DNA of 64,000 nucleotides, from positions 158,089 through 222,088 of the forward strand of contig NMRA01000614.1 of assembly GCA_002633005.1 (NCBI GenBank), written 5' to 3'. A program made the position numbers and the translations under genes. The notes under the pieces are model-generated. The model saw only the letters and a list, made by a program, of their open reading frames with translations. It was not told where the DNA came from and searched no databases. The number at the start of each line of letters is the position of its first letter. Position 1 is the first letter of the stretch. This stretch comes from Phoronis australis (taxonomy: Eukaryota > Animalia > Phoronida). Of this stretch, positions 19,737 through 43,036 are shown piece by piece.

Positions 19737-19871
19737 GCTAAACGCAAAAGTGTCGCAAAATAACATCAATATACCGTAGGCCTATACAAGGAATAAAAAA
19801 ACTATTGGTTTAGGAATGAAGATAGAATTCTCATACTGAACACGCACACTCAAGGCAAATGTTCATTTTAG

Positions 19872-20265: not shown

Positions 20266-20322
20266 GTAAGTAAATCAATGATATTGAAAATGTCGCCGCC
20301 TTTGTCACGCAAGACTGGTAAC

Positions 20323-20537: not shown

Positions 20538-20857
20538 GTTACTGTGAGCATTTGAAGGCTGGAGTTGAGTAGTCCAATATTTTATACTTTTGGGAACTCA
20601 AATAAATAGAGTTTTGTGACGACGAACCAGATGGACCACAGAATGTTTACGAATAAAACAAAGATCCCAGATCGATTAATTGCTCACAAGGGAGGATACG
20701 TCCAGACAGTGTCATTTTTGTTTGATTTACAATTTTTGTTAGCTTATTGTCAGTGCTGAAGTTCTTGTGGCCGATCTAGTGTCAGGAATGGATCTGGACT
20801 GTTTAGAAAGTTCAAACAAGAGCCGTGCGGCAGCAATGATATTATTCGATATTACAG

Positions 20858-21152
20858 GAGAATGAACAACTTTGAGAACAACTTGTGCACGACAGTCGAC
20901 GCCATTTTGGAGATTCTGGGTCACAAGCCACAGATAATTCGAGAACAATTCCTGCAGCGTACAACGCGTCCTAAAGTTTTATTTAGTGACTCTCTTCTCA
21001 CGGCAGCGCCAAGCTCGAGCGTTGGCACGGGAACGCCGTCCAGCGCGAGCGAGGTCACTGTTGCTCAGCGTTCACCTTCAGACTGCATAATGACAATACC
21101 GCATCTCGTGAAGTCTCCAAGCGAAACTAGTGGCATCCTGAAACGGTATTAA
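20858..21152 (+). CDS. KCNH2: Erg-like channel last coding exon (tetramerisation coiled coil, stop)
   Basis: Joined DIDIRLEAINERMNNFENNLCTTVDAILEIL resembles hERG [31 protein letters not shown]; TAA at 21150-21152. Confidence 0.85.
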
Positions 21153-22812
21153 TTCTCTTTACGAACATGTGCTGAGTCGAATTACGCCGTTGAAGGAGAT
21201 CGAAGCCGCGAATGATGGTCCTCAAAACAGATAAAAAATTCCAACTACAATCATGAAGAGTTGCCAATTCTTTCTTTGATCGTGTTCATCTGTATCTCCA
21301 GGAAACTACTCACTTTAATCAACAAGGATTTAGATTACAATACGCACATGTTATTCAGTCAACCATTCGTTACCAGTTCCAGCCAAATACCGATGACTTT
21401 GGTTATCATGTTATTTCAGTTTTAGGTTGAAGACCCGAAAAGTTTAGTTGATTCACACATCAGTAACAACTAAGATAAATTCGAAAGTGATGGCTATATG
21501 GAACGTGATATACAACTGTATCTTCAACCATCTTTTACTGTACAAGTTTCAGTTGAAATGATGATCAGAATCGTTCGGTTCTCGATTATACAGCATCCTG
21601 GTGGTATGGAATGACGAGTGGACTTTTGTCTCGTTTTCTACTTTTTTCCGATTTATTTGTTTCTCCGAGGCGGACCTTTTTGCCCGCTTCGCCATATGGG
21701 GGCTCGTCTCGAGCCAGCCTGGGTGGGCGCATGCGAGTTCGTTCCTAAATGCATATTCTAGATTAGTTACTCCACCTCGCCTCGTTTTCTTAGATATACT
21801 CGGGAGATTAAGAAATGATACGTTGGCTGTGCCTGCTGCGGCACTGCCGCGTCGGCCATTTTGGCGGCGTCCAGGTAACAACGAAAGAGTAGGAGGTCAC
21901 CGCCTCGACTCGATGTCAGTCAACTTTGCTTGGTAGTATTTGTAGGAATGGGCGATTAGTGATAAACAGGTTTTAAATTGTAGCTTTCACCTCAAGTGAA
22001 AACTAGTGATTTTAAGAACCCTGTCATGCGTTTTTGGCTGTAAAACCGACTGTGTCCCTTTAAAGGTCGAATGCCGGCATGAGGTATAACCTGAAAATTC
22101 ATCGGATGAGTCGTAGAAAGGGTTATACAACTGAAGTAGCGTGTGCTCGTTACAAATAGCAATCTGCAGGTCATTATATAATCAGTACGTTACATCTTAT
22201 ACTTTATTCATGAGCTCACTTTTGGAATTAAGTCAAAAAAATGGAAATTCAAACTAAGCTAATCGAAAAATATAATGTGAAATTCAATTCATCAATATTT
22301 ATATTGTCGTAGAAGAAAAGCGAGTTGTATCTCATTTCGTATACTTGCTAAAATCCTCCATGTCGAGAAAAAATGAAGGTCCCTGGTCGGCGCTCATAGG
22401 TGTACTTCAAAATTCTCTGTTCATACTCTTTACCTCTGGTGTATACTTCCCTCTAAATTTAGCACTACACCACTAGGACTTATATGATTTAGTACAGTGT
22501 ATATAAACTTGTATTTTGAGCAGACTGAAGTGTTTTTTGTTAATCACGACTGTCTTTAAAAGTGACATCCCAGACAAATATCGTACTGTGCTAGCAAATT
22601 CCCGGCGGAGCGGGATCGCGTATATGGTCGTTTTTCCGTAAACAAATGTTATAAATCCCCATTGTTTCACGGGGAAAGAATACAGTGTTTAGTTAATAAT
22701 GGTCTGTAGGACAATTGGGCTGCCTGTGTTACGTTTTAACTTGTGCATTGAAGTATACTTTGTGCACTTGGTTTTGTTTGATACGATTGTTTTGATAAAA
22801 TGAAAAATATAA

Positions 22813-22963: not shown

Positions 22964-23973
22964 CAGTGGCGGATCTAGGATATCACAAGGGGGGGGCCCA
23001 ACATTTTGTCCGGCTGTAAGCATTTGCGCAAACTGAACCACGATTGTAGATGCGCATAGCACCGAATGGGGGGAGGTCGGGAGGGGGGTTTGCCCCCCNN
23101 NNNNNNNNNNNNNNNNNNNNNNNNNNNNNNNNNNNNNNNNNNNNNNNNNNNNNNNNNNNNNNNNNNNNNNNNNNNNNNNNNNNNNNNNNNNNNNNNNNNN
23201 NNNNNNNNNNNNNNNNNNNNNNNNNNNNNNNNNNNNNNNNNNNNNNNNNNNNNNNNNNNNNNNNNNNNNNNNNNNNNNNNNNNNNNNNNNNNNNNNNNNN
23301 NNNNNNNNNNNNNNNNNNNNNNNNNNNNNNNNNNNNNNNNNNNNNNNNNNNNNNNNNNNNNNNNNNNNNNNNNNNNNNNNNNNNNNNNNNNNNNNNNNNN
23401 NNNNNNNNNNNNNNNNNNNNNNNNNNNNNNNNNNNNNNNNNNNNNNNNNNNNNNNNNNNNNNNNNNNNNNNNNNNNNNNNNNNNNNNNNNNNNNNNNNNN
23501 NNNNNNNNNNNNNNNNNNNNNNNNNNNNNNNNNNNNNNNNNNNNNNNNNNNNNNNNNNNNNNNNNNNNNNNNNNNNNNNNNNNNNNNNNNNNNNNNNNNN
23601 NNNNNNNNNNNNNNNNNNNNNNNNNNNNNNNNNNNNNNNNNNNNNNNNNNNNNNNNNNNNNNNNNNNNNNNNNNNNNNNNNNNNNNNNNNNNNNNNNNNN
23701 NNNNNNNNNNNNNNNNNNNNNNNNNNNNNNNNNNNNNNNNNNNNNNNNNNNNNNNNNNNNNNNNNNNNNNNNNNNNNNNNNNNNNNNNNNNNNNNNNNNN
23801 NNNNNNNNNNNNNNNNNNNNNNNNNNNNNNNNNNNNNNNNNNNNNNNNNNNNNNNNNNNNNNNNNNTAATTAATAAACTCACCATTTCCCTACGCTCTTA
23901 CTGTTTTATTTTTTTGCGGCAGCCAAGGGGGGGGGCCCGGGCCCCCTGGGCCCCCCCCCTAAATCCGCCTATG
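22964..23973. mobile_element. CAG(G/T)GGCGGAT MITE spanning the assembly gap, TSD CAAAC
   Basis: cagtggcggatctagg / cctaaatccgcctatg; CAAAC at 22959 and 23974; N gap 23099-23866 inside. Confidence 0.75.
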
Positions 23974-23977
23974 CAAA

Positions 23978-24440
23978 CGGACATTTTAAGTCTGGTGTGC
24001 ACGTCATCTGTTGGCCACATCACATCACCTAGAGACCCAAGTCTAAAAAGATTTCTGCCTCATCTGGGACTCGAACGCGGACCTTCTGCTAACCTCGCAG
24101 AAGGTCCCGAGCTTAAGATTTACATATTTACACACTCTTAGGAGTTACAGAGTGGAATGCCCACTACTAAAGTCTGATTGGATTTATGTGTTTGGCCATG
24201 GAGAAGGTCCTTGGGCCTGAGGTTTACTTAGTTATATGGTACACTTAAGTGTTCAAGGGAGGGTTGTCCATTACCAAGTTTGATTGAATTTCTGTGTTTG
24301 ACCGGCGTTCCCGATGGCTCAGTGGACTAGCAGAAGGTTCCTGTTTTCAGTCCTGGTCGGGCAAAAACCTTGACAGACTTATATTGATTAGGTCACCTGA
24401 TGTGGCCAACAGATGGCGTGCAGACCAGACGTAAAATGCG
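23978..24440. repeat. Inverted pair of ~115-bp SINE-like repeats with tRNA-type boxes
   Basis: 23978-24095 is the reverse complement of ~24325-24440 (catctgttggccacatca core); GTTCGAGTCCC B-box on -, TGGCTCAGTGG A-box on +. Confidence 0.65.
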
Positions 24441-25543
24441 ACTTCTTTCAAACAACAGTGTTTATTGCAACTTAACATCAAATCATAGTTCAAGTCCAAG
24501 ACAGTAATTCAGTATACAAAAATTAGGCAATAATTGCATTTACTCACTTTACTTTAATTCTAACATGTATCAGTCAATTGATTTAGTTAAAAACTGCATT
24601 AATTAATTTAGTTTCAAAGCTCAACAACCTTCTGACAAGTAACCGACCAAATTTAATCAGCAGATGTTTCATGTCAACATATCAAATAAATCCTTAATAA
24701 TACCAGAAATGCGTGGGAAAATGTGCCAAATATTTTTATCATATTAAGCACAGAATGAGTCAGAATGTATGACTCCACATTCACTAGAAACAGAAACTAG
24801 TTCATCAGCATTGGGGTGTTCATATTGAAAAGAGACCACAATAAACTCGGCCTTTTCACAACACCATGTATTGCATCAATAGATTTGTAAAATCCCAACT
24901 GTTGTCGAGGGGACTGTTTATCAGGAACTCAGATCAAAGTTCCTCCTGTGTGGAGTAGACCAGCAATGGCATCAAAGCACAAAAATATTGGCTAAAATAC
25001 ATTGATGTATCGAGGACTAAAACTGGTGATTTTTTGACCTGCATGGGTTATAAAATTGAATTATTCATAAACAAATGAGACAGGGACATTTTTACTCAGA
25101 ACATATGACAAAACAAAAGCAAAATTGATACGTTAGGTTTTTGTTCTCCAGTACCTGGTGATGAATGGACTTAGTAATTTTTTAAAAAATGGTAGATAAT
25201 TGGCCTTAGTAAGTCAGGATGCAAACGAGTACCAGAACCCTTAACGATGGACGAGATTGATATTTGGATCTAGCTTCGACTTAGAAAATGCACAAGGACT
25301 TTTTTAATGCCGAATGGTTTTTGATGGATTGAAGCATTTCTACATAAGGTTGAATCCAGCCTTGATTTACAAAATGGTGTCTTCTAGAGTTGAAATCACA
25401 CACAAAGTTTTTTGGAATGCCACATGGTTTTTCCTGAATGCACGCATTTCTACAAGAGGTACGATCCATGCTTAACTAGCAACACCTACAATAGAGTGAA
25501 TTTTGACTTTTTATTTAACAGTTATCCTAACAAAGGCACTTCG

Positions 25544-25711
25544 TCAACTATCTAATTTACATGGCCATCCCCTAACATCCATAATCCATGATGTCAAAAT
25601 GTGAGGATCGACATTTTCTGATAACCGTTCTTCTCGGGCAGCCAGGTCATCTTTCAACTTGGCAATTTTTTCAGTGGCAAAATCGTAAAGAGCCTCACGA
25701 CACAGGTCACC
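25544..25711 (-). CDS. RlaP-like NTase gene last coding exon
   Basis: GDLCREALYDFATEKI...LTSWIMDVRGWPCKLDS*; tgcAG acceptor, TGA at 25546-25544. Confidence 0.88.
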   Translation of the reverse strand, partial: GDLCREALYDFATEKIAKLKDDLAAREERLSENVDPHILTSWIMDVRGWPCKLDS

Positions 25712-26576
25712 CTGCACAAAAGAATACAGTAAATAAAATTACAAGTACATGTGGCTCCCTCTGTCTACTGCAAATATGTACATGCCAAAAACAGAGAATT
25801 CAAAAATCCACACTTCTGGTGAAGATGAATTTTTGAATACAGGGTGAACAGAAAAGTTGGACCAACTTGCAGATATTCAGCATTTTCAAACCAGGTTAAT
25901 GTTTTTAAACAGGCCATAGTTTAATGGATCAAATTAGAAATTTCTGAAGAAGCAATCCTTAAGAAGAAGCCCACCCAGGCATTCTTCAAAGATAATTCAT
26001 GACAGTCAGAGGGAACATATTTTTCCTCTGCTCTGACTGTTTACTTTTAGGTCTATTGACTTATGGTCAATTTTGGAAATAAGAAGATACATGTTATGGT
26101 TATGAACTAGCTTATTTACAAGTGTGTGTTTTTCGCCAAATCTACAAAAATACAAATTTTAACTGGTAGTATAAGTACATATTTTATGAAAGTAAAAAGC
26201 CTGTAGAATTTGATTTTGACTTTTTACCAATCTCAGATTAATTGCTCGTCTTAGATGGATTTTCTTTTTTGAAAACGTGAGCAACTAAAATAAGATGCAC
26301 CAGTCATTTGATTTTCAAAAAAATCACAGACCAGAAACTAATTTTTACTCTTGTGTTTCACTGCTGCAGTTTGTGTACAAGCCGAACACGAGGACGTTCT
26401 AACAAACATTGCCAAATATTGAATAAAACAGAGTTAGGTGACAATAAAACATTTTGTTAATTACTTCAGGCCTGTACAAACACAACATTAATTTGAAAAC
26501 CTGTAATCTTTTGCTCAGAAAATATAAACAAACTTGCTGAGATTTGAAAAAAAATAAACAGCAATGAGCTTGTTAC

Positions 26577-26690
26577 CTCTAGAGGGGCTTTCCTGATCTT
26601 CATAATGAACTCCCTCTCACTCTCTGTACATCTGACAGGGGGCGCCTTTCTGTTCAGCATGTACCCAAGGCTGTACAGCTTGTGGAATAT
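26577..26690 (-). CDS. RlaP-like NTase gene exon 11
   Basis: IFHKLYSLGYMLN...EREFIMKIRKAPLE; cAG/GTaaca. Confidence 0.88.
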
Positions 26691-27151
26691 CTGTTGTAAC
26701 ACACCGAGGCATAAACAATGCCAGCAACACACAAAGATCAAGAGAGATAAAATTCATAATATTCTGCACTGGCTTTGCAGAAGTTCTGCAAATCAGTGCG
26801 TAATATTCTGCATGGCAAAAAAATGAACTGCAATTAAGAAAATACTAATGGAGCAAATAAAAACTTAAGTTACACTGTAAACATGTACAGCCCAAGGTGT
26901 AGATTTGTATCAAATCATTTTTATGGTCCAAAGTAGATATGAGAAATGTGAGGAACCATTCCACCCACTTTGAGACTAAATAAGAAAGTCTCATTTGAAA
27001 AACGAAAGTGTTCTAGAGAGAGCCAATCAGCAAAAGAAGAGGGCTCAGTCCAACATGGTACTGTTGATCCTGTCGCTAAGTCTGTAGTATCAAACTTGAT
27101 TAATTCTCCTAGGCAGTTAGGGGGATTTCACGTATAGCTTCGCTGTCATTA

Positions 27152-27531
27152 TTCAAATGCATTGTGGGGTGTTTTTCAACTCTTAAAAAATCCGGTGACA
27201 TCACAGAAAAGTTGGGGATGTTAACTGATTCAAAATTTGTGTTTTAGGAGGTGGAATTTGATTTCAGCATGATTGGATGGCCATCTGCTTCAAGAAAGAC
27301 TTGAAATACTATGCCATGCACCTATTGGGTGCATGTTGAGGCTCATTTTTAAACTTACAATGTTCTATAATGGTTGCTTTGTCGTACTCACGCTAAAAAG
27401 CATGTTGCTTTCAATTCTGGTACATGCAACTGACTAGCGTTGTCTTCCGTCTTATTGTTTACACGTCACCGAGTAACCCGTGATGTCACCAGATGTTTAC
27501 GAGCCGACAACCATCCCATAATGCATTTGAA
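27152..27531. mobile_element. MITE-like segment bounded by ttcaaatgcattgtggg inverted repeats
   Basis: Inverted ends plus ggtgacatcac/gtgatgtcacc; same end motif at 31012-31255. Confidence 0.6.
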
Positions 27532-27589
27532 AAACATTTTGATTCGACATTGTTACAGCAGTGTGTGGCTATATATCAACACTACTTAC

Positions 27590-27727
27590 CTGGTAGAACA
27601 GTTTCCTCTCCCTTGGAGTGTGGATGTGTTTCTTGCCCTCAATCATTACCATATTGTTCTTAATTAGTCCTAGGTACTGTCTAATTGCTGTCTCCGTCAC
27701 AAACTCAGACTTCCGATCAGCCAATGC
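27590..27727 (-). CDS. RlaP-like NTase gene exon 10
   Basis: ALADRKSEFVTETAIRQYLGLIKNN...RKLFYQ; ttttAG/GTaagt. Confidence 0.88.
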
Positions 27728-28650
27728 CTAAAACAACAAGTAAACTAAAGATAAAATTTTCAATTGAAGTGACATTTGTCAGTGAGAAAAACGGTTTCTG
27801 AGATCAGCCCCAAAGCGGAAACAAATTCACAACGTCAGTGGTCACATTCTAACACTTTGGTGACAGAGCTAAATTCCATTTGATAAATTGCAGAGTATTT
27901 TAAGACTTGGTTAAGTCCCCAGCCTTGGTATCGGAGAACGGCTAGAAGACAACGACAAGAATTAGTAATTTGCTACAAAAACACAATGGATCTTGTTATT
28001 CTATATAGCTGGTCTAAGCTACTGACAAGACAACAACTAGATTCACGTAATTGATAAAACTTTTTTCAATCAAAGTTGATTCATGTTATGTCACCAAACC
28101 AAATAACGATTTTTCAATTTCTCCCAGCTTTTCCGGTTTTACAAGTCTGTGTTAAGAAAACTCGGGACTAGGATTAATGGAGCATTCCACCCACTCACTT
28201 GCATTATAGTGACATCTGTGTTCAAATATAGAATTAGCCGCTGACATAATTCCTAGACCAAAAATTTTTAAGTCCATCTCAGAATTCAAAAACCAACAAA
28301 AATGACAGTCAACTGCACATGTGACGTCTTCACCTATGTTCGATTACGAAGACAACTGGATGGCAAAACACAGAGTTGACTGTCCGGAAATGATGTTGCA
28401 GCAATGGTTAATATCCTCTACTCATAGCCGTGCTGTTCCAAAAAAGGGTTTTCTATCAGTGCTACAATTTTCTGAGTGTTGAGCCTTGGGAGTGTCTCTG
28501 TAAAACATACTTGGGTTTAAGGCAAAATTAACTTTTTTGAAATCTCTTATTTTGGGGAAAAACACACCCCGTGCTGATGAAACGTCAACAGCAAAACCAA
28601 TTTGAAGGTTAGAAACTCACGCCCGAAAGTACAACTTTCCGACGTAACAA

Positions 28651-28744
28651 CATGGGTAGCGCACCATAGGGTGCTGGGGGGGGGGGGGNNNGGGGGGGGG
28701 GGGGCTATAGCCCCCTCACTTATTTCAGTGCTGCACTGCCCATG
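28651..28744. mobile_element. CATGG...CCATG mini-MITE with 5-bp TSD AACAA
   Basis: catgggtagcgca / tgcactgcccatg; AACAA at 28646 and 28745. Confidence 0.8.
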
Positions 28745-28865
28745 AACAACACATGCTGACTTCAAGAATGGCACTTCTGAAAAATGTTCCATCACAGCTG
28801 CCTCCAAACAAGTGGAATTGATGTCAAGTTCGTGCTGGCAAGATCTGTCTAAGTAGCTTACGTAC

Positions 28866-28910
28866 CTGCCAAGCCTTACTGGTGTATTCCAAATTGTCAG
28901 CGAACAAAAG
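28866..28910 (-). CDS. RlaP-like NTase gene exon 9 (45-nt small exon)
   Basis: LLFADNLEYTSKAWQ; tttcAG/GTacgt; completes the ILE-LLF motif paralleled in repeat 1 (FLETLF...SSW). Confidence 0.85.
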
Positions 28911-29494
28911 CTGAAACAACATACAGTATTACAAATGGCAATTGCTACAAACATTTGCGAATAACTTAAATCAAAAAAAATACAAAGTACTGGTTTACCG
29001 AGTCACTCAGAATGTGTTTATAACGTGAAAGAGACCTGAAAGAGATCCCCATACTCAAATAGACCATTCAAAGCCTTGGTAAGAACAAGGAGAGTCAAAA
29101 TGCCATCAATTTATGACAAGGTTTGCCAATCCTTCCAAAACCGAACTGCTTTATATAAATCACAAAATGTTCTCCGAAGTCATTTTGATTGAACAAACCA
29201 AGTGTCAGGTTGGCAAGGACACTTTTTCAACCAGTTTGTGAGAGCTAAATCGGCTTATTTCATAAATTCATTACTTAAGCATTGATAAGGATCCAATGCT
29301 CTTTCAGGCAACCCATGCATATTCCCAGTCATTAAGCCAGTCACCAAAAGAGGTAGCTGTGTACAACTCTGAAACATTCGACAAAGAACTCCATTGTGAA
29401 AACTCGAAAGCGACTTTCAGTTAACCCAAATTCAAGTTTTGCTGAGCAAGAAGGGCTGACTTGACAAAGGCAAGATGTAATTTCTTTCATTCAC

Positions 29495-29694
29495 GGACAT
29501 TTTGCAATGTAGGACATTTTGCAATGTAGGACATTTTGCAATGTAGGACATTTTGCAATGTAGGACATTTTGCAATGTAGGACATTTTTGCAATGTAGGA
29601 CATTTTGCAATGTAGGACATTTTGCAATGTAGGACATTTTGCAATGTAGGACATTTTGCAATGTAGGACATTTTGCAATGTAGGACATTTTTGC
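29495..29694. repeat. 17-bp minisatellite (ggacattttgcaatgta), about 11-12 copies
   Basis: Near-perfect tandem copies visible directly. Confidence 0.95.
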
Positions 29695-29980
29695 ATTAAT
29701 CATTTGACTATCCCACCGCTGGTAATTTGACAACAAAAATTATGATCGTCAACAAAATGAGAATGCAACTGTGTTAAATCTCCACTCCAAGACACAACTG
29801 AACCCCAGGTGGTGCTGACCGCTGTCCACTCAATATTCTAAAGAATTTTCACCATAATATGTTAAGTTTCCTACACTCTTAAACAGACCTCTAACAATTG
29901 GTGTTTTTCGACCCCTGACCCTTGCATCTGCTGCAGTTAATGTGTCTTAATTCACATTCCCCACCGAGACCCCGCTTTAC

Positions 29981-30115
29981 CTCCAGTATCACCACACTTC
30001 CCTTCCACAGCATTTCGCAGAAAAGGCGTGCCTCGTAGGCCCCATACTCGAACGACTTGGTGGGTCCCCTACTCTCAAAACACTCCGGTAATCTTTGACT
30101 GGATGAATACGCCAC
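29981..30115 (-). CDS. RlaP-like NTase gene exon 8
   Basis: ...SFEYGAYEARLFCEMLWKGSVVILE; ttcAG/GTaaag; phase 0-0. Confidence 0.9.
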
Positions 30116-30705
30116 CTGAAACCAGATGTATCTGGAGTATATTTACCATTATCAAGTATTTGGTGAAATTGAACTTCAAAAGAGTGATAAGTTTGCTAGT
30201 ACGCTCAAAAGCAGACAACTAAAAACATACGCTACAATAGGCCCATCCCAAATTACTCAGCGATAGAACTCTCCTTTGTTCTGGAGATAAGAAAGCACGT
30301 GACCTAGTTTTGGAAATCACGCACATTTTCGTGTCTCTCATTGATGTCAGGAAAGTAAAAAATATCAGATCATGCATCCATGGATATTTGTCCACTTTAT
30401 CAAACTTTTTCACGTCGGAGTTGCAGCCCATGGACATCAGAGGGAAGAATAGAGCAATGCAACCGAGAAAACTTGTAAACAGACAACAATTAACATGTGA
30501 AATTCCAGTGGCATGAAAACAAGGCAGCAAATGTGCGTGACGGATGTTTACAGCATTGTGGATATACAGTGTGATTCGCGTGGCGCTGTGTAATCTGGGA
30601 GAGTCCTTTTCAAAGTCATCGTTTATCATAAACACAATGGTTCAATAACAGAGTATAATATTCAAAATGATATCGCTTGATTACAAATTAATCGTGTACA
30701 CTCAC

Positions 30706-30878
30706 CATCGGTTCATGAGCATAGATGACCACATAATCAACATCACTCTCTGGTGTTGACAGATTGTACAAGAAGCTGCCTGCCTGGGCTACCATGAGGA
30801 TCTGTTCGGGAGCCATCTTGGAAACTTGATCGCCTATTCTATTCATGATACTTCTAAGCTTTGCCTTATTTTGGGCGT
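30706..30878 (-). CDS. RlaP-like NTase gene exon 7 with catalytic GS...DxD motif (absent from ORF track)
   Basis: EQILMVAQAGSFLYNLSTPESDVDYVVIYAHEPM; caAG/GTgagt; phase 1 to 0. Confidence 0.93.
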
Positions 30879-31011
30879 CTTGAAAGATAAAATGTCAAGT
30901 AAACTGAAAAGTAACAAACGACAAATCCATTCCAGCTCTATGTAGATACCCTGAGATGGAAAGATGAGAGAGATGCAATTTGGGGATTTCATCTACAGTG
31001 CTGATGCCCTT

Positions 31012-31255
31012 TTCAAATGCATTGTGGGAGACTTGTCGTCTCATAAACATCTAGTGACATCAATATAACATGGTGTGTGTGTACAAAATAATGCGAAACA
31101 ACACTTTGGTGCAAGTATGACAATGCAAAAATAAAAGACTGAACATGAGTCTCAAAAAGCCTCAAATAACTACACACTAGCAAACCTGTTGTATGAGAGC
31201 TCATGCTGAAGTTAAATTTCCCCACGTAAATCATTAATCCCACAATGCATTAGAA
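31012..31255. mobile_element. Second ttcaaatgcattgtggg-bounded MITE-like segment
   Basis: ttcaaatgcattgtggga / tcccacaatgcattagaa. Confidence 0.55.
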
Positions 31256-31942
31256 GAACAACAGGGGGTAACTTATAATCACATGAAAAACCAAGTAGTC
31301 CAATTAAGGTCACAAAAGAGGTGATTGTCGCCAAGTTGCCAAGGCATTTTGTTCAAAAAAGCTTAGAGTATATTTGTGTAGGTTTTAAAAAAATGTAGGC
31401 GGAAGATTTTTTCTTTTAACAGTGAAGCGCAGGTTTCAAAATGCATCGGGCACACACCAGAACCAATTCTTCTAGTTTGTTTGGCCTGACTAGCATAACA
31501 TTCATGTGCAAAATGCTGATATTCTGGTCCATCACGAGTGGACACCAAGGGCAAACAGAGCTTAACCACAAATCACGCCAATGGATTCATGTAAACAGTA
31601 AGAAGGCAGATCTAACATCTGATTTGGAGTTGGACTATAAGAAGATGATTCAGGTGTCTGAATGCTGTAAATTCAGAAAATTTTGATAAGCGTCAACAAA
31701 TGACACGGTGAACAAAGCATAAGTATTATTCACTTTGGGCTTAATGTGCAGTTAATCCCCGACTTAGGCTACAATAAGTGCCCCCTTAGGCTACAATAAG
31801 TGCCCCCAAAACGAATTTTTCTAAGCGCCCTGGGTGCTTATTAGGGCGAATACGGTACACATAAAGTAGACAAGCATTGAATAAAAAAATTCGATCATTT
31901 GATCAAGGAAACATTAAAACAACATTGTCTGGAATGGCTTAC

Positions 31943-32132
31943 CAACTATTTGAAGAAGCGGTTTGACCTCAACATCGCTGAGTCTCACATGACTCAGCCA
32001 ACTCCCAACCTGCTTCTGGAGATTGTCTGGCTTGGAAAACGTAAATGTCTGCACAGCTTTATCAATGGATGTTTTCCATTCAAGGACAAGGTCAAAAATC
32101 TCTCGCTTACTGGTTGATCGATCTCTATCGTC
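31943..32132 (-). CDS. RlaP-like NTase gene exon 6 (end of first domain copy)
   Basis: DDRDRSTSKREIFDLVLEWK...QVGSWLSHVRL...; aAG/GTaagc; phase 0 to 1. Confidence 0.85.
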
Positions 32133-33523
32133 CTTTAAAGTAAGTACAAATCAGAAAAAGATGCTTCATTAAAAACCATACTAATGATAAACAACACGAG
32201 ACAGAGAAAAGTAGCAATACTACCACAAGGTGGCGCCAGCACGCAAGTCCTTAATCACACAGCACTGTAGGGGCATTTTAATGATCTAACGGTCAACAAA
32301 CCCTCACTTTCTGTCAAAACTTTAGGCCACTTGTTATAAGAAAATCAGTCTCATCTTGCTCTTTAGAAATAATTTCAAGTCTTAAGAAGAACTGTTGGGT
32401 TGTTAATTGTTTTGGACAAAGGTCATGCACTTTGCTCGTCGCGGCCGTTAGTTTCAGTCAAAGAAGCAGCATCACCGTCAGGGGAATTACAAGAGTTTCA
32501 TTCTGACAAATTCAAATTCACAGAAACGAGAACACAACAGCATCATGTCAGAAGAGTAAATATGCCTGTGGAGTAATTCTCGATACTACGACATAGCTTA
32601 TAACAGTGGAAAATTATTTGTACAAGCCAAGTCAAGCTCATATTAAGGTCTAGGTGGGCAACACAACAAAGTCTCCACTAACACTAACAGCCATCTCTGA
32701 CCTCAAGTATCCTGCAAGTCGCCCATGTAAGTATACAGTCACGTTTACCACTTGCGCCTTTCAGCAGCTCTGCATAGTTATGAGCGAGCAAGTGGGAAAT
32801 AGATTTTAGCTTGGATGCCAACCACAAACCACAGATGGCAGTCAAAACAGTAAATGCAGACCGCATGTGCTGGTGACAGGTCAATGAAATAAATAAAACG
32901 GACTAAAGCTTCAAAACATTTGGACTACATGTAGAGGCATTCAAAACGGAATTATTTATTGTATTTTTCATGTTTAGTTTTTGTTATGCCTCCCCCATAC
33001 AAAGCTAATGAGGCCACACTAATGAGTTTCTGGCAGGAAAATGGTCCTATTTGGCCAACAGTCTCACAGGTCACTGGGCGTTGGCATAACAAATCACCAA
33101 TAGATGCATTGCCACTCCTGATCCAATAACAAATCACCCAATTTTATTGAACATCAGAATAGAACTCAATCAGCAGAATCAGACAAGCATCTCTTGACAT
33201 GTGCTAAGGCATAAGAGCTAAAACTGCTGACAAAAAATTCCGAAACCCGCGACTCAATACTGCCTTAAACTAAGGCCCTTTGATGAATTGATCTTAAGCC
33301 GTTGAGAGATCATTTCTGATCTAAGTATGCATAAGCAAACAAGTGGAGGTCAATTTTGCAGCAGCCAGTGGTCTATTTCAAATGTCTTCCAAATCAAAAT
33401 TGCTTAAGTTGAGGGGAATGAGCTTTCACTTATAAAATACTAGAGACGTGGATCTTCAAACACTGGCATGAGGAAGAGCAAAAAACATAAATCCCATATT
33501 AACAGGTTTGTATTGAAGCAAAC

Positions 33524-33641
33524 CTTATACAATGCTGTGATCTTCTCCAATAAGGCTTCTGCATATGAACTACTTGAGACATCTGGTGATAGAAAATTTA
33601 AGACTTTTCCATTCAAGCTCTGACTAGCGTACTGAAGAAGC
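33524..33641 (-). CDS. RlaP-like NTase gene exon 5
   Basis: RLLQYASQSLNGKVL...LLEKITALYK; cacAG/GTttgc; phase 2 to 0. Confidence 0.85.
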
Positions 33642-34296
33642 CTGTGAAAAAATAAGAGCATCAGTAGGCAAAAAGCATAAAACTGATTAGAAGGTAACAC
33701 GGACATTTTGATTCCCCTCCAATTTGAAAGCATTAAACCACCAAAAAAAATTAAAGTGTTCTAAGCATTATCTATTGATAATTAGTTATCACACTAACGT
33801 GTTTTAAAGGTAGCAGCAGTTTTGTAAAACAATAAATTTTCATTAACTGCAGTTAACTGCCAAAAATTCTCTTAAAATTCATTATACCTTTTTGGTATGA
33901 AAAAACCATGTCACAAATTTACTGTTTATGGCATGTACCATTTGTATTGTGGCATGCCACAACTAAAAAACATCACATGAAACATGTCACATGTGAGAAT
34001 GCAATGTGCCATAGGTCACATGGAACGTGAGTCTTTAAACGCTAATTGATATTACCCTGTCTGGAAACTCTCAGCAAAATATTTTTCTAAGTTGCGATAC
34101 TTACAGACAGGAATTATTCACAACAGGGTTTGACATTTTGCAACCGTTGTCTAGCTTAAGATTATGCTAAGCAGATAATCAAATTTACAGCTTTCAGTTT
34201 ACAGGCCGAGCCTCCAAACAGGGAAGTAACCATGCTCAACTGCAGAGGGATATCTATGACGCCAAGAACAATCATGCCGTTGACTAGCATCTCTAC

Positions 34297-34420
34297 CTGC
34301 AAGAATTACAGAAGTCTCTTAGCGTGACATCATCTCTCATTTTGAATTGGCCGGTCTTTTTCTTTCTGCCGAGACCCCCCGCTGCCTGGCCTCGACATTC
34401 TTCTATAAATCCCCGCACAC
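34297..34420 (-). CDS. RlaP-like NTase gene exon 4
   Basis: VRGFIEECRGQAAGGLGRKKKTGQFKMRDDVTLRDFCNSC; phase 1 to 2. Confidence 0.85.
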
Positions 34421-35693
34421 CTGAAACAGTAAGAACAGCGATAGAGCGCAACCCCTCAACTAGGATGGGAGTGCATCAATGTTTATTATTAAAGGAAGAC
34501 TTGCCTTTCGGAAAAAAAAAACAAAACAGTGATGATAAAGTGTTCCTTGAATTTCTATGGATGAGAACAGTCGTTTTTAAAACAATTAGCAAAATCCTTC
34601 ATGCGAACAAAATTTCCAACTACCACCTATTTCCTATAATAGTTTTTACTAAATTTCCTACAGTATCTAATTTCTTTCATAACTTTCATCATAACTTTTT
34701 GAAATGCAATTAGATGACTTCATCAGCATTTTGTCACATTTAATTCCAGTACATGGAAGCTGCAGATGTCTTGAAAGGACAAATAGCGTGATGAGAGACA
34801 GGAATCCATTTTTCAAACTTTTCTGTGCCTACACATCCAGACTTTATTTATTTATTTATTTTATTTATTTATTATTGTGATATTTCAAATGAGGGTGGCC
34901 TCTTCAGTGATAGCACTGCTTTCCAAGAGGGCCCTGTTGGTCCTTTTAAAGTTGTTCAGTGTCAAGACACCTGTCAGCAGAAGTGCAGAGTTTATAAGAA
35001 TTAATTATTACAGTGAGCTGAGTAAAGAATTCCTAAGTGTTGGTTACTTAGCTTTATTCGCACATTATTGTGTGCGAGATAAGAGACAAATTACTGTTGA
35101 AATATACCATCTCCTACAGGACATTTCAATCTCTTCTAGCCTTGTTTTCCAAATGCTTTATTCAGTAAGTATACACTATGAAAATGAAAAATATCAATTA
35201 ATCTGAATGAAAAAATGATGGGAAACTTTAAATATACCTGGGGGCTCTAGTGTGAAAACAATCAAATCTGTAAAAATGTATGCATTCAGGTACTCCAGTG
35301 GGACTGTTAACGTATTAACGCACTTACACTTATGAACGTCCTTCTGCTCTCAGCCTGTGCAGGTGTTATAAAAAGGTGCGTTTTTTATCAGCACCACACT
35401 GTTTTAAACGTTCACAGAGAATATCTACTACAGAAATCAGCACACACATGAATTCTAATCGAAGAGACATTTCGCCAATGTTTAGCGGTCAATGTTGAAT
35501 TTTTAACCAAAGTGCTTCAGTGCACATTACTATGCTCATTGTATCTTGAATTGTTGCCGAATGAGGCAACACCTGAAGTCACAAGCAATGCGTACCGGTG
35601 CCATTTTCAAATTTGCAGTTTTAGAGTTGATCAACCCCAATAAACATTGAAGCGTTTTCTTGCATCACTGATAATTTCTATATTCCTATTGGT

Positions 35694-35812
35694 TATGGAA
35701 ACAGAACCCTATCACCGTAAGGAATGTTATGAGGGCAATTTTATGAGAGTAAAAGGCCGATTTGATTATTTTCCGTCTTTAGTCAGTTAAAGAAGGCAAA
35801 ATGCAACTTTTA
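35694..35812 (+). repeat. ~120-bp dispersed repeat with a second copy at ~37960-38074
   Basis: cctatcacc.taaggaat.tta.gag...ttttatgagagtaaa.ggcc...aaatgca.cttt in both. Confidence 0.65.
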
Positions 35813-35830
35813 AATAATTAATTAGCATAC

Positions 35831-35990
35831 TGCGTATGTCACTGGGGTTGACTGATGACTTTAATCGCTCCCAGGAACTGCACAACAGTAACACAGCTGA
35901 TTCGGGGGTAAACAGCGTTTCCAAAAAGCGAGCCTTGCCTTTACACAAATAATGTGCAAAGTGTGATACCTCTACTGCATACAGCCAGCC
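35831..35990 (-). CDS. RlaP-like NTase gene exon 3
   Basis: GWLYAVEVSHFAHYLCKGKARFLETLF...SSWERL; tttcAG/GTatgc; phase 0 to 1. Confidence 0.88.
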
Positions 35991-36231
35991 CTGAAAATAC
36001 AACATACAAAATAGGACACGTGCGTTACGAAAAAGTATCAAAATTTCAGCCTTTATTACAAACACCAAAACAGATCTTTGTTCTAAAAACAACTAAAGTG
36101 CACATTAACATTGTTACTATTAGAGATACCTCCACAGAAACACAACAAGCAAAATATTTTTTTATGAAATGAATCTGACAAAAGCATTCAGATCATATTT
36201 CTTACAGTAACAGAAGATTTTGGTCTCCCTG

Positions 36232-36500
36232 AAACAAAAATGACTACGATCACATTTTCGGAGCAAAATGACAACGATCACCTTCTTTGGAGCAAAACGA
36301 TTACAACCACAATCTTTAGAGCAAAACGATTACAACCACAATCTTTAGAGCAAAACGATTACAACCACAATCTTTAGAGCAAAATGATTACAACCACAAT
36401 CTTTAGAGCAAAATGATTACAACCACAATCTTTAGAGCAAAATGATTACAACCACAATCTTTAGAGCAAAATGATCACGATCGCATTCTTTGGAGAAAAT
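36232..36500. repeat. 29-bp minisatellite (agcaaaaygattacaaccacaatctttag), about 9 copies
   Basis: Homogeneous core with diverged edge copies. Confidence 0.93.
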
Positions 36501-36813
36501 GACGTGGGGAATAGTTGATGGAGCACGTTAAATTATCTCTGAAATTCGGGCCGGAAACAATTTTGTTTTTATTTATTTTATAAACTAGACTCAACTTAAT
36601 GTTCTTACACTCTGTACAGTCAAACGATATTTTGAAAAACATTATGATTCATAACATAATGTTTAGAGGTCTCTTCAAAAATGAAAAAGCCATTTTCAAC
36701 AATGAATTTTGCCTGAAATTGGTGAGATTTTATTGTCCTTCCTGAAAATTATGAGGATGCCACCTAAACTAATTATCACTGTCATGCATCCTATCCAACT
36801 TAACAATTCTTAC

Positions 36814-36995
36814 AAGATCAATGACGCTGTTGGCTTCCTTTTTATGCAGGTCTATGGGGCAGAAATATTCCACGTCAGGGCTTGAAAAGACCACCACAAT
36901 CACATTGTGTTTGGCTTGCTGGCCTCGCTCTTCTTGGGTGGCCTGATACCATGGACACGTCACTAACGATGCAAACAACAACATCTTGCATTTAC
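36814..36995 (-). CDS. RlaP-like NTase gene exon 2 (start of degenerate NTase copy)
   Basis: GKCKMLLFASLVTCPWY...VIVVVFSSP...VIDL; caAG/GTaaga; phase 1 to 0. Confidence 0.85.
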
Positions 36996-38316
36996 CTTGA
37001 ACAAAACATGGGTAAACCTTTTACAGCAGACCACGATAACAAAGTAACAGTTCCCTAGGGATAGTGTATCCTCCTAAATAAGCCACTGACAAATAGAATT
37101 GGACGGTCCTGGATTATATAGCTACATTTGAATCTCATGTTATTTACTCCCAATGCTGCAACATCTGTCATTTTCGCCTCATTGGTGTTTTTCATGTTAT
37201 TTGTTGGTGTCTTGTAATTTTTAAAATTTTTCTCGATTGCATTAACCTTTGACCTTCCAATGCCAGTCAAATGTTACTACTGTCCTGCGGGCAGCAACTC
37301 TGATGGTAGAAAATTTGATAAACTTTAGAAGTATCCATGGATTCAACATTTTCTGACATGACTCGGACAATCAGCCAAACATTTTCAAAATGAGGATAAA
37401 CATCTTGCCCTATTAAGTTATGGAGCAAGATTCCCAATTTCTATTGCACTACCTTAAACCCAGTAGCCACTTTTTGAGTGGAGCTTGTAGACACACCAAA
37501 ATTTGCTTGCTTCTCTTGAAATGAAACATGAATAACAGTAATAAACCAAACTAAGGCAACAACAAAAAGTATTGAAACCATACAACTAATTAAACAAGCT
37601 CCATTGCCAAACAAATAATCAAATATTGAAGTTTATCATATTCAGCTACGGTATTTCTGAAAAATTGAGTATGAAAGACTATTAATTACTCTAATATTAG
37701 ATTGTTTAGCTTGGAATAATTTATAGCTGCATTCCACCCTGTTTAGCAGGCTAAGATACAAAAACTCAATTAGGTCATTTACTTTCTCATAAAATTGATC
37801 TCATAACATTACGAACCGAGATGTGATACTATTTCTGTTATGAAGAAGAACAAGGAAACTATCAGCAACTCAAGAAACCTTTTTCAGTTTATTGGGGTTG
37901 GACAAAACTGCAATTTTGAAAATGGCGCATGTAAACATTGCCTATCACTTGAGTTGGCAATGGAAATGGAATCCTATCACCATAAGGAATATTACGAGAT
38001 CGATTTTATGAGAGTAAACGGCCTAATTCGATTTTCATTTTTAGCCACCTAAACAGGGCGAAATGCAGCTTTACAATTCATGACAATATCAAGGAACTAC
38101 TTTCACTCGTACTGAAATGTAGGGCACTTCATACAAAGCGGATTTTTTTGTCAAAATTAATAGATGTCTCCTAAATTAAGTACAATCAAATAATGATTGT
38201 GATCACTCAACAAGAGGCGTTACTGTCACATCTGGTTTTAATTTGTGAGTTAACAACAGTTGAATTTCCTGAACACAAAGTTCACCAGTTGGAAACCCTG
38301 GATAACACAAAGATAC

Positions 38317-38578
38317 CTTTAAAGCAGTTTTCGAGGAGTGTTCTAAACTCTTGTTTGACATCATCATTAAGACTGCTAGGTACATGCATCAAAGTCAACT
38401 GACGTAGCTTCAGTAGCAAGTCCTCGCTGAAAGTAAAGTCAGTCCACTGTACAGTGCTGCCCTCTAGTTGACTTTTTATGCCTCTCACTGAATCCAGACA
38501 TGCCAGCGCTTGGTCGACAACTGAAACTGACACAAGATGATGATGAGAAGGTGGTATGTTTGAAGTTCTAAACGCCAT
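38317..38578 (-). CDS. RlaP-like NTase gene coding exon 1 (MAFRTSNIPP...LENCFK)
   Basis: AG acceptor 7 nt before aaaATGg; G|GTatct donor, phase 1 matches the next exon. Confidence 0.75.
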
Positions 38579-40359
38579 TTTGTTGCTAGACAAAAAATCA
38601 TGGTGAATATTCAGAAAACAATCCACGATAACAGGGCACGGAAATGACTACCACAACCTACCATAAAAGAGACACACAGACCAAAGTCCCTGATCAGTAT
38701 ACCAAGACTCTGTGATTAAAATCATGCTACTGCACTAGATTGCAACCCTTTAACTCTGCCACTTGAGAGGGGTGCGTTTGCAATTAATCTTGAAAAGTTT
38801 CATCGGTTCTGTGAACTGAGTTTTCATGGCAAGGGTGCAGATGCAAGTTTTTCCTGGATTTCTGATGGGGCTCCCACTAGTAAAAAAGCTCCAAAGGTCC
38901 CAATAATGTACGAGAAAGCCCCCATAAGGACTATTTCAGAATCACTTTGTATTTTTGGTTTGTGTGGAAAGTGAAGATGTCAATATTTGCTCAACTTCTG
39001 ATCTCTGAAATGACTGTAGAAATATTTCAAATTGATCACTTGTCAACAAAAGCACCGCCAGACTTCTCTTACACTGACCAAGCTGCAACCTGAAACCTTC
39101 CTTCTACAGCATTACTTAAAACACCATGGCTGTGACAAGACACATTTTTAAATGGCAACACCAATCACTTAATATATTTCTCACTTGTCAAAACCCTTAG
39201 TCTAAGTTTACAACTCCAACAACATAAAACACAAAGCAGTAAATCCTAAAGTAATTTATCTAAATGAACTACAGAAATACTGGAAACCGTGGGAGTCTAT
39301 CTTTGCTGACTAAGTCATCGATTCACTGATACAGTGTACATATATAAATTACACACTTAAAATTAATCTGAGTGGGGCCTGCACTGGGTGACCAACGTGT
39401 ATAACATGTGTATCATATAAAATTAAGCACCTCAACACTATCGTCAAATTTTTGTTATGTAATATTTGAATGTCATTGCCATAACATTATTGTTAGCTAT
39501 TTGTAATTTTATGTTTGAATAAAAAAAGAAATAAAACACAAAACAGCAGTATTCTTATATATCCCCTGGAAGACAATGCTTCCAACTTTTCTCTAAATTT
39601 CACCTCCCGTTAACAAGGGCAGAGGGCACTCTTGCTTTTTCTTTGCCTTGAGAGCATTAGCCAGTCTTTCCTGTGATTGTATGGCATCTGTCACTAACTT
39701 CAACAGCTGCACTGTAGACATCCTTATTTAACTAAAACAAAGAAAATTATGCGAAGGTCAAGTAATAGTTTCTTGCATATTCTTGGTAGGAAAAAAAATT
39801 ACTTCCAAGCCAACGCAGTGCCTTAACCATACCCTTTGTAATCTCAAACTTTGTGAAACATATCAGTAAATTTTGAAGGCCCATAAGTCAGAAGGTTCAA
39901 AAGTTCGAAGGTTAAACATTTGTTTTGGCTTTACCTTCCATGACAGTGATGTCATAGGATGTTAAAGAGCTGAAAATGGTGACACAGAATCTTCCTTTCA
40001 CCTTGATAAAAAAACAGTGCTCCATTATGCTGAACATCTTTTCATTGAATTTCATTGCACAATAACTTACTATGATTAGAGCATGTTTGCATCTAGCCAG
40101 ATAGAACTCATTATATTTGGATTAAATACATGAAAATAGATGACAGACATTTAAGTGATGAAAACAAACTTTCTTGGTGCACAGAATTGACAAATATTCT
40201 TGGAACTATGATCCATACTAATTTGTCTAGTACAATGGCATGCCTTATTTGCAGCGACTCAAAAAAAAGAAGTTTCCAAATATTATGAACTTGAAAGTTT
40301 TAGAGCAATTTAATGAAACTTAAATAATGGTCAATGCGAATTATTTGACACCCATGATT

Positions 40360-40595: not shown

Positions 40596-42119
40596 TGATT
40601 TATCTTTTTGAGTTGACTAATTCTCTTAATATTTGTTGATCGCGGGTGTGATGTGATGTCTGTGTGCATGCATGCACCTACATACATGATTGTTGCTCTT
40701 TTTATACTCTAAAATAGTAAATATTCAATAGATTTCTTACAAGAAAAACAAACGTTTCTGTGATAAATGAGAGGTTTGAAAAACATGCATTATGCTATGT
40801 GCACGATCTGTGTCTTTTCAATGCCTATTCAGTCATGTTGAGGCACTGGCATTTGTTGCTATTTGGGCACAGCCGGGGATACATACTACGTCCCCCTACT
40901 CCAGACCCAAGGGCAGCACATGCCCCTTCGTATTTTCTTTGGAAAAGGAATATCTTTCATTCGTCATGGGAACACTTTTCCCTAAGGAATTCAGCAACAT
41001 ACTTTTATTTGTTATAAAGCTGAATGGTGGTGCACGAAAATAATATACCATTTTTAGGTCATTTTTCACTTACATGACTGTAACAGGCAAGGTTAGTGTC
41101 TCAAACTGTCGCATTTTACAAAGAGGAAGCAAGCCTATGAGATACGCAGATAAAGACAATGAAAGACAACATGCACATACCATAGGGCCTACGTAAGTAG
41201 CTCATTACTATAACTGATTTTGTGTATCCTTTTTGAAACTAACCTAGCTGCTTTAACAGAAGGAGTACAACTTTTTACTCTAAAATTTGTAACTTTCAAC
41301 TCTTTTTTGAAGTCATGACACTTATGGTTGCTTTGATTTTGGATGTTTTAGCACAGTCACATATGTATGGAAAAGTTGCATCCGGCAGAGCAATGCATGA
41401 TAAACTGAGTAGTTGTTTTTTTGTGTACCATGGATAAGGTGAACGTAACTTGTCCAGCGAATTACCATTTACAAGTGCGGGATGTTTTGCATGCAGCCTG
41501 TCCGGTCGATACCTCATACCTGTTATACAATGGAGAATAACACAAAACTTTTAGCAAACATGTTGATACACATTTAAACTAAGGGAGGGTGACATGCTGA
41601 CTGCAGAGCTAATCAGGTGGTGTGAAATTGTGAGGTAGACATAAAATTTACAAACATTGCACCCTATCTGTATACTGACTTTAGTCTCCATGCAACTAGT
41701 GTTGGCTGGCTAAGACCAGTCTTGGACTGAGTGCCTAAACCCTAACTTAGTCTGACTAAGAACAAGTCATGGATCAAGGCAGGTCGGAAAAACTGAAATG
41801 ATATCAGAGTTCCCGTCTACTCTGTAGTTAGCCGTCGTTTTGTAAACATCTTAGCCTCAATCATATGTTGCTTGCCAACCTCACCAAATAAAACATCGAT
41901 GACTCAGTTAACTGGTTAACTCCGGTCTCTTGCTGTACACTCGTGACAGGCAACGACTTCGTGCAAACTGCCAAAACAATGAAAAGCGACACCTATTGCT
42001 AGAACTTCTTGATGTCTTCAAATGGTTTCATTCGCTAAGTAGCCTGCTGAACTTTACAAGCAACTGTGTGATGTCAACTATTATTAATAAATATTCAGAT
42101 ATGCAGCTGATCGGTTAAT

Positions 42120-42429
42120 ATGTAATGTTTTAAACGCTCCGCTAAAACGTCGAAAGTTTTTTACAGCCACTACTGTTAATCAGCGCATGCGTGACTATCT
42201 ATTTCCTGTAGAATCTCGATCACGGAAGCAAAGTCGTCTTCGTTATGAAACGAGCTAATTTCTTTAATTAGTTTGTTACCCATGTGTCACCATGTGAGCT
42301 TTCAATTGATTTTCTGGACGTCAGTGAAGATTGTGGTCGCTGAAAATGTGCTTTGCGAAGAGCTGTACACCTCTTTTGCAACCTGAATTGACTTGAAGTT
42401 CCCGAAAGTCATAAATCGGCATCGACAAG
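42120..42429. promoter_or_regulatory. Putative bidirectional promoter between the NTase gene (-) and SOS (+)
   Basis: Head-to-head gene orientation; CpG-richer patch with GCGCATGCG (NRF1-like, 42183), CGGAAG (ETS-like, 42223) and GACGTCA (CRE-like, ~42317). Confidence 0.5.
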
Positions 42430-42537
42430 ATGTTTTCAACATCAAGTCAAATAACTGCCGAACCATCTAGTTACGATTTCGAATCGGCCGAGAACGCTGG
42501 AAAATGGAAAGACATATTCATAAATGCTCTTCAGCAG
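42430..42537 (+). CDS. SOS1: Son of sevenless (Ras GEF) coding exon 1 (absent from ORF track)
   Basis: MFSTSSQITAEPSSYDFESAENAGKWKDIFINALQQ resembles human SOS1 [22 protein letters not shown]; CAG|GTatac. Confidence 0.9.
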
Positions 42538-43036
42538 GTATACCTTCTTACTTCCAATTTCTTATGCCAACGTCTTAGCATTGCACTGTCTATTGGGTTT
42601 CATTGATTCACAATTTCTTGCTTATTTTAGTTATTGTTCATTGTGAAAGTATTATGAATTAATTGATAACCATTTGACTTCACTTTAAGAAAGCGATGAC
42701 AGCATGACATGAATATTTAACTTAGAATGTCTTCACGTTTGCTTGTGTCATGACTCTCCTTGCCCTGTCATGAGGACATTACTCTGTGGTATTTTAACCT
42801 GGCTTTGTTCAAGTTATTGAGTTTTGGGATTGGAATCTGTGGTATGCGTATTCAAGCTATTCAGGAAAGTTGGATTATGAATAAGCAATAGAGTGTACAA
42901 ATGTTACATATTTGAAGTTTGGTAGTTGGTTTTTGGCCTAGTTGACCTGAAGTTTTGGATGTGTGTAGCTGTAACTTGTTTTTTGTCAGTCATTATTTAA
43001 TGGAATTGAAATAATGTGAGAGTTGTTTGCTTCATG

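Follow-up and report, generated by a model that had tools for sequence, protein, structure and literature searches.

A phoronid gene that joins a predicted RlaP nucleotidyltransferase to a degenerate RlaP copy

The gene and its transcripts

A 64,000-nucleotide stretch of Phoronis australis DNA (assembly GCA_002633005.1, contig NMRA01000614.1, positions 158,089 to 222,088 of the forward strand; hereafter the window, whose own numbering is used throughout) carries on its minus strand an intron-containing gene for a Pol-beta-type nucleotidyltransferase (NTase). Judged by sequence, the C-terminal half of the encoded protein is an NTase of the RlaP family (PF10127, T4 NrdC.11-like), while the N-terminal half is a second RlaP copy that, by alignment, is a pseudo-NTase with all three catalytic acids lost. 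This dead-plus-live RlaP is a new architectural variant, which is kept from sponges to molluscs and annelids and is uncharacterised.

A preliminary description, made from the sequence alone, had proposed 12 minus-strand exons with canonical splice sites and matching phases that open with an ATG at 38578 and encode 602 residues. This model could be rebuilt from the window sequence, with GT-AG intron ends, a coding sequence of 1809 nt, and a single terminal stop, and those of its quoted motifs that lie within single exons were found on the minus strand at 30801, 30780, 30747, 30049, and 25588. Its 5′ end, however, is wrong according to spliced RNA reads. The RNA evidence consists of three raw RNA sequencing runs (X1, X2, and X3) with the same species label, mapped to the gene region, and transcription is seen in all three. 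Ten of the 11 proposed introns are crossed by spliced reads (11–29 each, summed over the runs) in one orientation throughout, and the first mate of the spliced pairs lies on the plus strand, in keeping with transcription from the minus strand. It is a genuine, expressed gene. Only the last proposed intron (25712–26576) has no spliced reads among the junctions listed from the three runs; its sole support comes from homologues, which align on through to residue ~615.

At the 5′ end, reads join 39604 to the alternative acceptors 38520 (12 reads) and 38526 (nine reads) and, in run X3, 41885 to 39731 (eight reads), with ten further reads on an alternative upstream joint, 41517/41883. Consequently, the ATG at 38578 falls inside an intron. 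The corrected frame starts at ATG 39721 and comprises 13 coding exons and 12 coding introns for 622 or 624 residues; the best homologues align from residue 2–7 of this protein, compared with residue 12–26 of the earlier one. The intron that holds 38578 shows a sense-read depth of 2–5, and this ATG might still be used in unspliced transcripts. A 5′ untranslated exon (41885..41960, with the donor at 41885 and 41960 as a placeholder for its 5′ limit) is joined to coding exon 1 (39604..39731, residues 1–39), which had been overlooked and matches the N-termini of homologues. Coding exon 2 (38317..38526, residues 40–107, with either acceptor) belongs to a helical N-terminal extension of roughly 100 residues that precedes the first RlaP copy and whose helices appear in the model of an orthologue. 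Downstream of the stop, strand-specific coverage marks a 3′ untranslated region (24400..25543, 3′ limit approximate), in which a motif scan places possible poly(A) signals at 25515 and 24466.

Among the coding variants listed from the reads, 18 in number, 13 are synonymous and five nonsynonymous, with none at a catalytic residue; this pattern, drawn from a partial list, fits a constrained gene. The minus-strand intron 32133–33523 carries sense reads over much of its length (depth 3–4.6 in runs X1 and X2, little in X3) and contains AATAAA at 33148 and 32960. Its coverage could reflect intronic polyadenylation, which would cut the transcript short after most of the dead half, an internal start, or intron retention.

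An RlaP half and its degenerate partner

The catalytic exon of the C-terminal copy (exon 8, 30706..30878) is marked by profile matches and alignment and encodes G399-S400 (from 30780) and D411/D413 (30744–30736). Taken alone, it is ambiguous in Pfam (NTP_transf_2 0.0021, MTPAP 0.0057, RlaP 0.0066, all below cut-off); it matches PHROG 388 with an E-value of 1.7e-10, and tblastn finds phage NrdC.11 and nucleotidyltransferase genes with it. In full-length relatives, RlaP exceeds the Pfam cut-off in 7/12 scanned matches (six near-full-length proteins and the C-half P0037) and in five of the six orthologues of a second scan; over the two scans, orthologues 40–47% identical to the window protein score 30.7–52.5 bits against a cut-off of 23. 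The spliced window protein itself reaches 113.6 bits when scored with a profile built from 17 domains of phages and bacteria, compared with 2.6 for the best of 200 shuffles, in a test that is not independent, as these domains had been picked with animal queries. Through PHROG 388, the Pfam scores of the orthologues, and the prokaryotic profile, RlaP is thus the best family, in line with the preliminary description. Its further statement that the protein is not a usual animal NTase likewise holds: in the scanned orthologues, none of the PAP/TUT, CCA-adding, Mab-21/cGAS, and OAS families rises above its Pfam cut-off (best E 0.033, MTPAP-like central domain), and what these animal enzymes share with the gene described here is the catalytic signature of the Pol-beta superfamily. 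Pfam already labels the active half in animal proteins. A word-indexed search with the 57-residue exon returned nothing, PDB sequence searches nothing significant, and NCBIfam nothing for animal-type proteins; scanning prokaryotic genomes and viral contigs for sequence patterns yielded no relative. RlaP clusters of the ESM Atlas (0.95 for the exon, where recognition was under threshold, and 0.76 for a full orthologue) serve as leads only.

The putative active site is conserved. G399, S400, Y403, S410, D411, and D413 are invariant in 48/48 aligned rows, and E446 (exon 9, 29981..30115; codon 30049–30047), the predicted third catalytic acid, occurs in 47/48 and aligns with a conserved prokaryotic Asp according to the alignment and the prokaryotic profile. 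The third catalytic carboxylate of RlaP is hence present in the C-terminal half, as Glu, and is followed by a helix motif. Read-supported exon 10 (28866..28910, 45 nt) encodes a segment that one Mytilus isoform and one Nucella model lack. The helical domain continues through exon 11 (27590..27727), with the conserved basic residues R524 and K525, and exon 12 (26577..26690; model and reads), and exon 13 (25544..25711) provides the terminal helix (W609, R614, G615) and the stop; it is placed by homologue alignment, its entry junction being the one absent from the reads. In orthologue models, the same succession of NTase domain, helical domain, and terminal helix is found.

Residues about 100–356 form a second RlaP fold that had escaped the preliminary description. 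By hhalign, the profile of the N-terminal halves matches that of the C-terminal halves (probability 93.2, E 2.9e-7, 187 columns) and that of prokaryotic RlaP (probability 95.7, E 8.7e-9, 165 columns), and exon 4 (35831..35990) alone matches PHROG 388 at positions 95–134 (E 9.7e-4). A hidden Markov model of the C-terminal half reaches E < 0.01 for just four N-terminal halves at Z=1000, and Pfam does not report the N-copy in the animal orthologues scanned. The exons of this copy follow the order of the fold: exon 3 (36814..36995) is a degenerate catalytic exon in which C121-P122-W123...N138 (about 36904–36960) takes the place of GS...DxD; exon 4 holds the strand-helix motif (E175, G186, E192); exons 5 (34297..34420) and 6 (33524..33641) encode the helical domain; and exon 7 (31943..32132) ends the copy with a terminal W347...R352 helix and adds a linker. 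Reads support all five, together with alignment or, for exon 4, the PHROG match. GS, DxD, and the third acid are replaced by C121-P122-W123, H137-N138-x, and W170, with no conserved acid in those columns. The replacing residues are themselves nearly fixed (in 48 rows: C121 47, P122 46, W123 48, E130 46, A135 47, N138 48). With 22 columns at least 90% conserved, compared with 47 in the C-copy, the N-copy is under constraint, though it changes faster. The halves do not share their intron positions, and a duplication after intron gain was therefore rejected.

Structure models were made from orthologues rather than from the window protein. The Lingula orthologue (47% identical) is predicted with a pLDDT of 92.5 and a pTM of 0.90 as two similar alpha/beta-plus-helical units. 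By Foldseek, it best resembles RlaP-like phage proteins, ahead of known animal NTases: predicted phage structures (BFVD) reach a TM-score (TMt) of up to 0.78 and E-values down to 5.6e-11, whereas TUT7, PAP, and OAS2 resemble the fold weakly, with Foldseek probabilities no higher than 0.25. Solved structures supply distant NTases, namely HalB, aminoglycoside NTases, and LinB, with DrrA and GlnE also in the lists; PfRlaP is absent from the PDB results for the orthologue models. HalB of the Hailong system (PDB 9DBH) is the best solved fold match of the C-terminal half, at 11% identity.

When the two Lingula halves were folded as separate chains, they packed with a score of 0.78 (best control 0.00), with 98% or more of the contacts common to the runs and a partner pLDDT of at least 70; in calibration, the mark was reached by 51/78 solved pairs and 2/108 mismatched pairs. 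Predicted contacts join N-terminal residues 148–156, 177–184, and 340–355 to C-terminal residues 422–430, 452–460, and 602–615. These segments are equivalent in the two copies (offsets about 273, 275, and 262), which gives the geometry of a two-fold pseudo-homodimer, the telling part of this prediction, and none of the catalytic residues is named in the interface. The copies are thus predicted to pack as a covalent two-fold pseudo-homodimer. A Deinococcus plasmid with two adjacent RlaP genes, flanked by Hen1 and Pnkp, fits action as a dimer.

Compared with the rest of the RlaP family (PF10127; PfRlaP, PaRlaP; T4 NrdC.11; PHROG 388), the animal C-terminal half has in common the NTase domain, helical domain, and terminal helix as well as GS, DxD, and a third acid. 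The animal gene differs by its 12 coding introns, its two copies per chain with the first inactive, the ~100-residue helical N-terminal extension, Glu as the third acid, and the lack of an RNA-ligase operon. The top viral match of the Lingula model, gp218 of Bacillus phage G (AEO93477.1, L002:216-1775; TM 0.58/0.68 over 581 columns), likewise contains two RlaP folds in one chain, one of them without the catalytic motif, but in the order live then dead as opposed to dead then live in animals. Since its two domains group together (89, on a long branch of a quick tree), gp218 probably represents an independent duplication. It is annotated only as ‘NrdC’. Two other phage annotations were seen: Streptomyces phage Frankenweenie gp45 (L003:2501-3193) apparently starts too late, with GS...DxD in the upstream in-frame stretch, and an Aeromonas phage ZPAH1 gene annotated ‘thioredoxin’ (L016:798-1769) contains the motif of NrdC.11/RlaP proteins and falls together with NrdC.11 of Acj133.

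Genomic surroundings and likely chemistry

The gene stands head-to-head with an SOS-like gene on the other strand, whose reads start in the 42228–42878 bin (region 41885–42540). As the intergenic gap is at most a few hundred bases, the two may share a bidirectional promoter. Tail-to-tail with the RlaP gene lies a multi-exon potassium-channel gene (4300–21900, plus strand; Pfam Ion_trans), which we take from its sequence features to be KCNH/ERG-like. An intron of the channel gene holds a GIY-YIG endonuclease open reading frame fragment (12839–13558, plus strand; E 7.7e-9), probably the remnant of a Penelope-like element. Intronic tandem repeats occupy 29490–29700, 36270–36480, and 55700–57800, their units, judged visually, measuring about 18, 29, and 34 bases, and the assembly is interrupted by a gap near 23100–23870.

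That RlaP acts on RNA was first shown for two proteins of Pseudomonas, PfRlaP and PaRlaP, in a preprint of December 2025 (PMC12776372). Extracts of this preprint describe the addition of one or two nucleoside monophosphates (NMP) to an RNA 3′-OH, with a preference for Mn2+ and for a mimic of cleaved tRNA, and report no labelling of DNA or of protein, E. coli proteins included (PMC12776372). Because the C-terminal half keeps the active site of Pseudomonas RlaP, the same chemistry is most likely here, and by this analogy the active half probably, if by no wide measure, transfers NMP to RNA 3′-OH ends. D411, D413, and E446 would hold two metal ions, and the active copy would move NMP from a nucleoside triphosphate onto the RNA 3′-OH. 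The dead copy would stabilise the active one, and its re-specified pocket may hold or sense substrate. A 5′-phosphate/3′-OH ligase would then seal the product; a 5′-phosphate ligase such as human C12orf29, as presented in part of its description (PMC9931718), would suit a 3′-OH product. An RNA substrate in eukaryotes is supported by a homologue of Platysulcus tardus that is fused to a YTH RNA-binding domain. Moreover, 4/16 prokaryotic homologue loci lie beside Hen1 and Pnkp, a polynucleotide kinase, an RNA ligase, or a tRNA nucleotidyltransferase. Of the roles that the preliminary description had offered, RNA end-repair or tailing is favoured by the RlaP analogy, while the immune-signalling option comes out weaker.

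Several points weigh against the reading of the gene as a packed dead-plus-live RlaP that acts on RNA ends. In the rows listed, identity to prokaryotic RlaP stays below about 37%, with the assayed Pseudomonas proteins outside the comparison, and the third acid is Glu here as opposed to the three Asp described in extracts on PfRlaP. A pairwise alignment of the N- and C-terminal copies is not significant, as 133/1000 shuffles score as high, and profiles alone reveal the duplication. The packing test used halves of one chain, which tend to pass, and ligands lie outside its calibration. The best solved matches, HalB (Z 9.4, root-mean-square deviation 4.7, 176 aligned) and aminoglycoside NTases, act on other acceptors. 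At 12/16 prokaryotic loci, within flanks of mostly less than 3 kb, no RNA-repair neighbour is annotated, and the KCNH-like and SOS-like neighbours in the window give no functional clue. According to extracts of the preprint, a 3′-OH product is ill-suited to RtcB (PMC12776372). Finally, for the animal gene, as for the other eukaryotic members, activity is predicted from sequence and analogy. No RNA ligase or end-healing gene was met in the window, where ion-channel and SOS-like genes adjoin instead; such linkage is a prokaryotic operon trait that is unexpected in an animal genome, and it bears on pathway context rather than on family.

Two other roles appear unlikely, to a similar degree. In the first, the active copy would make an oligonucleotide or nucleotide signal de novo in the style of Hailong HalB, OAS, or cGAS, with the dead copy as a gating sensor. 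Dead-plus-live NTase repeats occur in OAS3, and the dead pocket bears an invariant motif of its own, both of which speak for such signalling. So does the rank of HalB as top solved match of the C-terminal half (Z 8.5 in another comparison); HalB is described as synthesising oligo-dA with its own tyrosine as the primer and as governing an effector in the membrane (PMC13434031). Phage RlaP-like models, however, fit far better than HalB (TMt about 0.5), four animal-type proteins gave no match in a 2023 copy of PADLOC, no effector gene adjoins the gene, and the assayed RlaP, as far as the extracts describe it, requires an RNA 3′-OH primer and halts after one or two nucleotides.

In the second, improbable to about the same extent, the enzyme would serve housekeeping RNA tailing or maturation and not the repair of damage: it would label a particular RNA 3′ end to be degraded or matured, with the dead copy giving specificity. 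Long vertical conservation with mostly one gene per named species among the matches listed, transcription in all three runs, and the YTH fusion in Platysulcus agree with it. Yet no named vertebrate, arthropod, or nematode match appeared in the non-exhaustive searches, which suits a dispensable role in conflict, and Pseudomonas RlaP favours the cleaved-tRNA mimic in the extracts cited above.

Nucleotidylation of a protein or small molecule, as by MntA, GlnE, DrrA, or aminoglycoside NTases, is very unlikely: aminoglycoside NTases top the Foldseek lists and LinB, DrrA, and GlnE are present too, but these matches are modest (TMq at most 0.41) and may reflect the shared fold alone, and E. coli proteins were left unlabelled by Pseudomonas RlaP in the published extracts.

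Distribution, origin, and meaning

A HMMER scan with the catalytic exon returned 68 clusters, among them proteins of almost full length from Mytilus, Lymnaea, Capitella, Ephydatia, and Platysulcus, and two further searches gave 44 and 33 proteins (each from the best ~8000 candidates), whose named members are from molluscs, Lingula, Owenia, and sponges. One match, P0057, was dropped as repeat-rich and false. Most full-length proteins from molluscs, annelids, and the brachiopod share 40–47% identity with the window protein, and those from sponges share 34%. These homologues are annotated as ‘uncharacterized’, ‘hypothetical’, or generic nucleotidyltransferases. In these searches, which were not exhaustive and left many matches unnamed, no named vertebrate, arthropod, nematode, cnidarian, or echinoderm match was listed, which suggests gene loss in animal lineages without a match.

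The closest outgroups of the animal C-terminal domain are the last domains of multi-RlaP proteins of microbial-eukaryote type, likewise uncharacterised: Platysulcus tardus P0068, P0066, and P0051. P0068 is built as YTH, live, dead, and live; P0066 keeps the motif in both domains; and P0051 bears the same dead-N motif as the animal N-copy. In the main tree (34 active-type domains, LG+G4, midpoint root, with prokaryotes thinly sampled by 17 rows), the animal-type C-terminal domains form one group (99/95), to which the JGI protein P0051 is sister (99/94). Outside it come the final domain of Platysulcus and that of P0066 (98/95, 98/94), and all of these stand apart from the prokaryotic rows. A quick tree of 50 domains unites the 14 dead N-terminal domains on a single branch (97) and also pairs both domains of the phage G protein. 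Gene structure agrees across animals. At the 3′ end of the catalytic exon, 53/60 partial matches, Amphimedon among them, continue with Val, as a GT donor reads, compared with 0/13 full-length rows, and in gene models from molluscs and annelids, segments that match other exons of this gene are missing or mark the end of the model.

The shared intron and the nesting with protist multi-RlaP proteins argue for old vertical inheritance, and we infer from these comparisons that an intron-bearing, dead-plus-live gene was already present in the common ancestor of sponges and bilaterians. The preliminary description had left open whether the gene is ancient or horizontally acquired; tree and shared intron favour the former. 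A recent transfer into this lineage from bacteria or phages, for which the overwhelmingly prokaryotic and viral make-up of the RlaP family might speak, is largely refuted and extremely improbable in view of the single animal group nested with protist-type domains away from the 17 prokaryotic rows, the intron position common to Amphimedon and most partial matches, and the exon limits that agree with mollusc and annelid models.

Earlier work touches the animal branch lightly. The Pseudomonas preprint mentions a few eukaryotic RlaP members (PMC12776372), another study includes RlaP among the NTase families of a tree spanning 138 eukaryotes (PMC10400998), and two others mention it in prokaryotic and phage RNA repair (PMC7824862, PMC6514570). 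Our literature search found no account of an animal RlaP or of a dead RlaP copy, although the 2016 family-naming paper or the supplement of PMC10400998 may list animal members, and Kuchta 2009 gave no match for PF10127 or COG3541. With orthologues bearing generic names and no describing paper found, the suggestion that the gene may be uncharacterised in animals stands.

Speculatively, and at best as a minor possibility, an RNA-end repair arm of bacterial type may have come down to early animals and been retained by invertebrates, while the common model animals apparently lack it; in this arm the dead half of the fused pseudo-dimer, through its invariant Cys-Pro-Trp...Asn pocket, would be a dedicated sensor of nuclease-damaged RNA or of a nucleotide signal and switch on the active half to rebuild RNA ends in infection or stress. 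The dead copy, unannotated and conserved from sponges to molluscs, constitutes a new pseudoenzyme module. Its predicted symmetric interface with the active copy has parallels in a phage fusion and in bacterial genes that lie side by side, and suggests that dimers are the working form of RlaP enzymes in general. A conserved and expressed animal branch of the family further makes it possible to test directly whether, in animals, nucleotides missing from broken RNA ends are replaced ahead of ligation.

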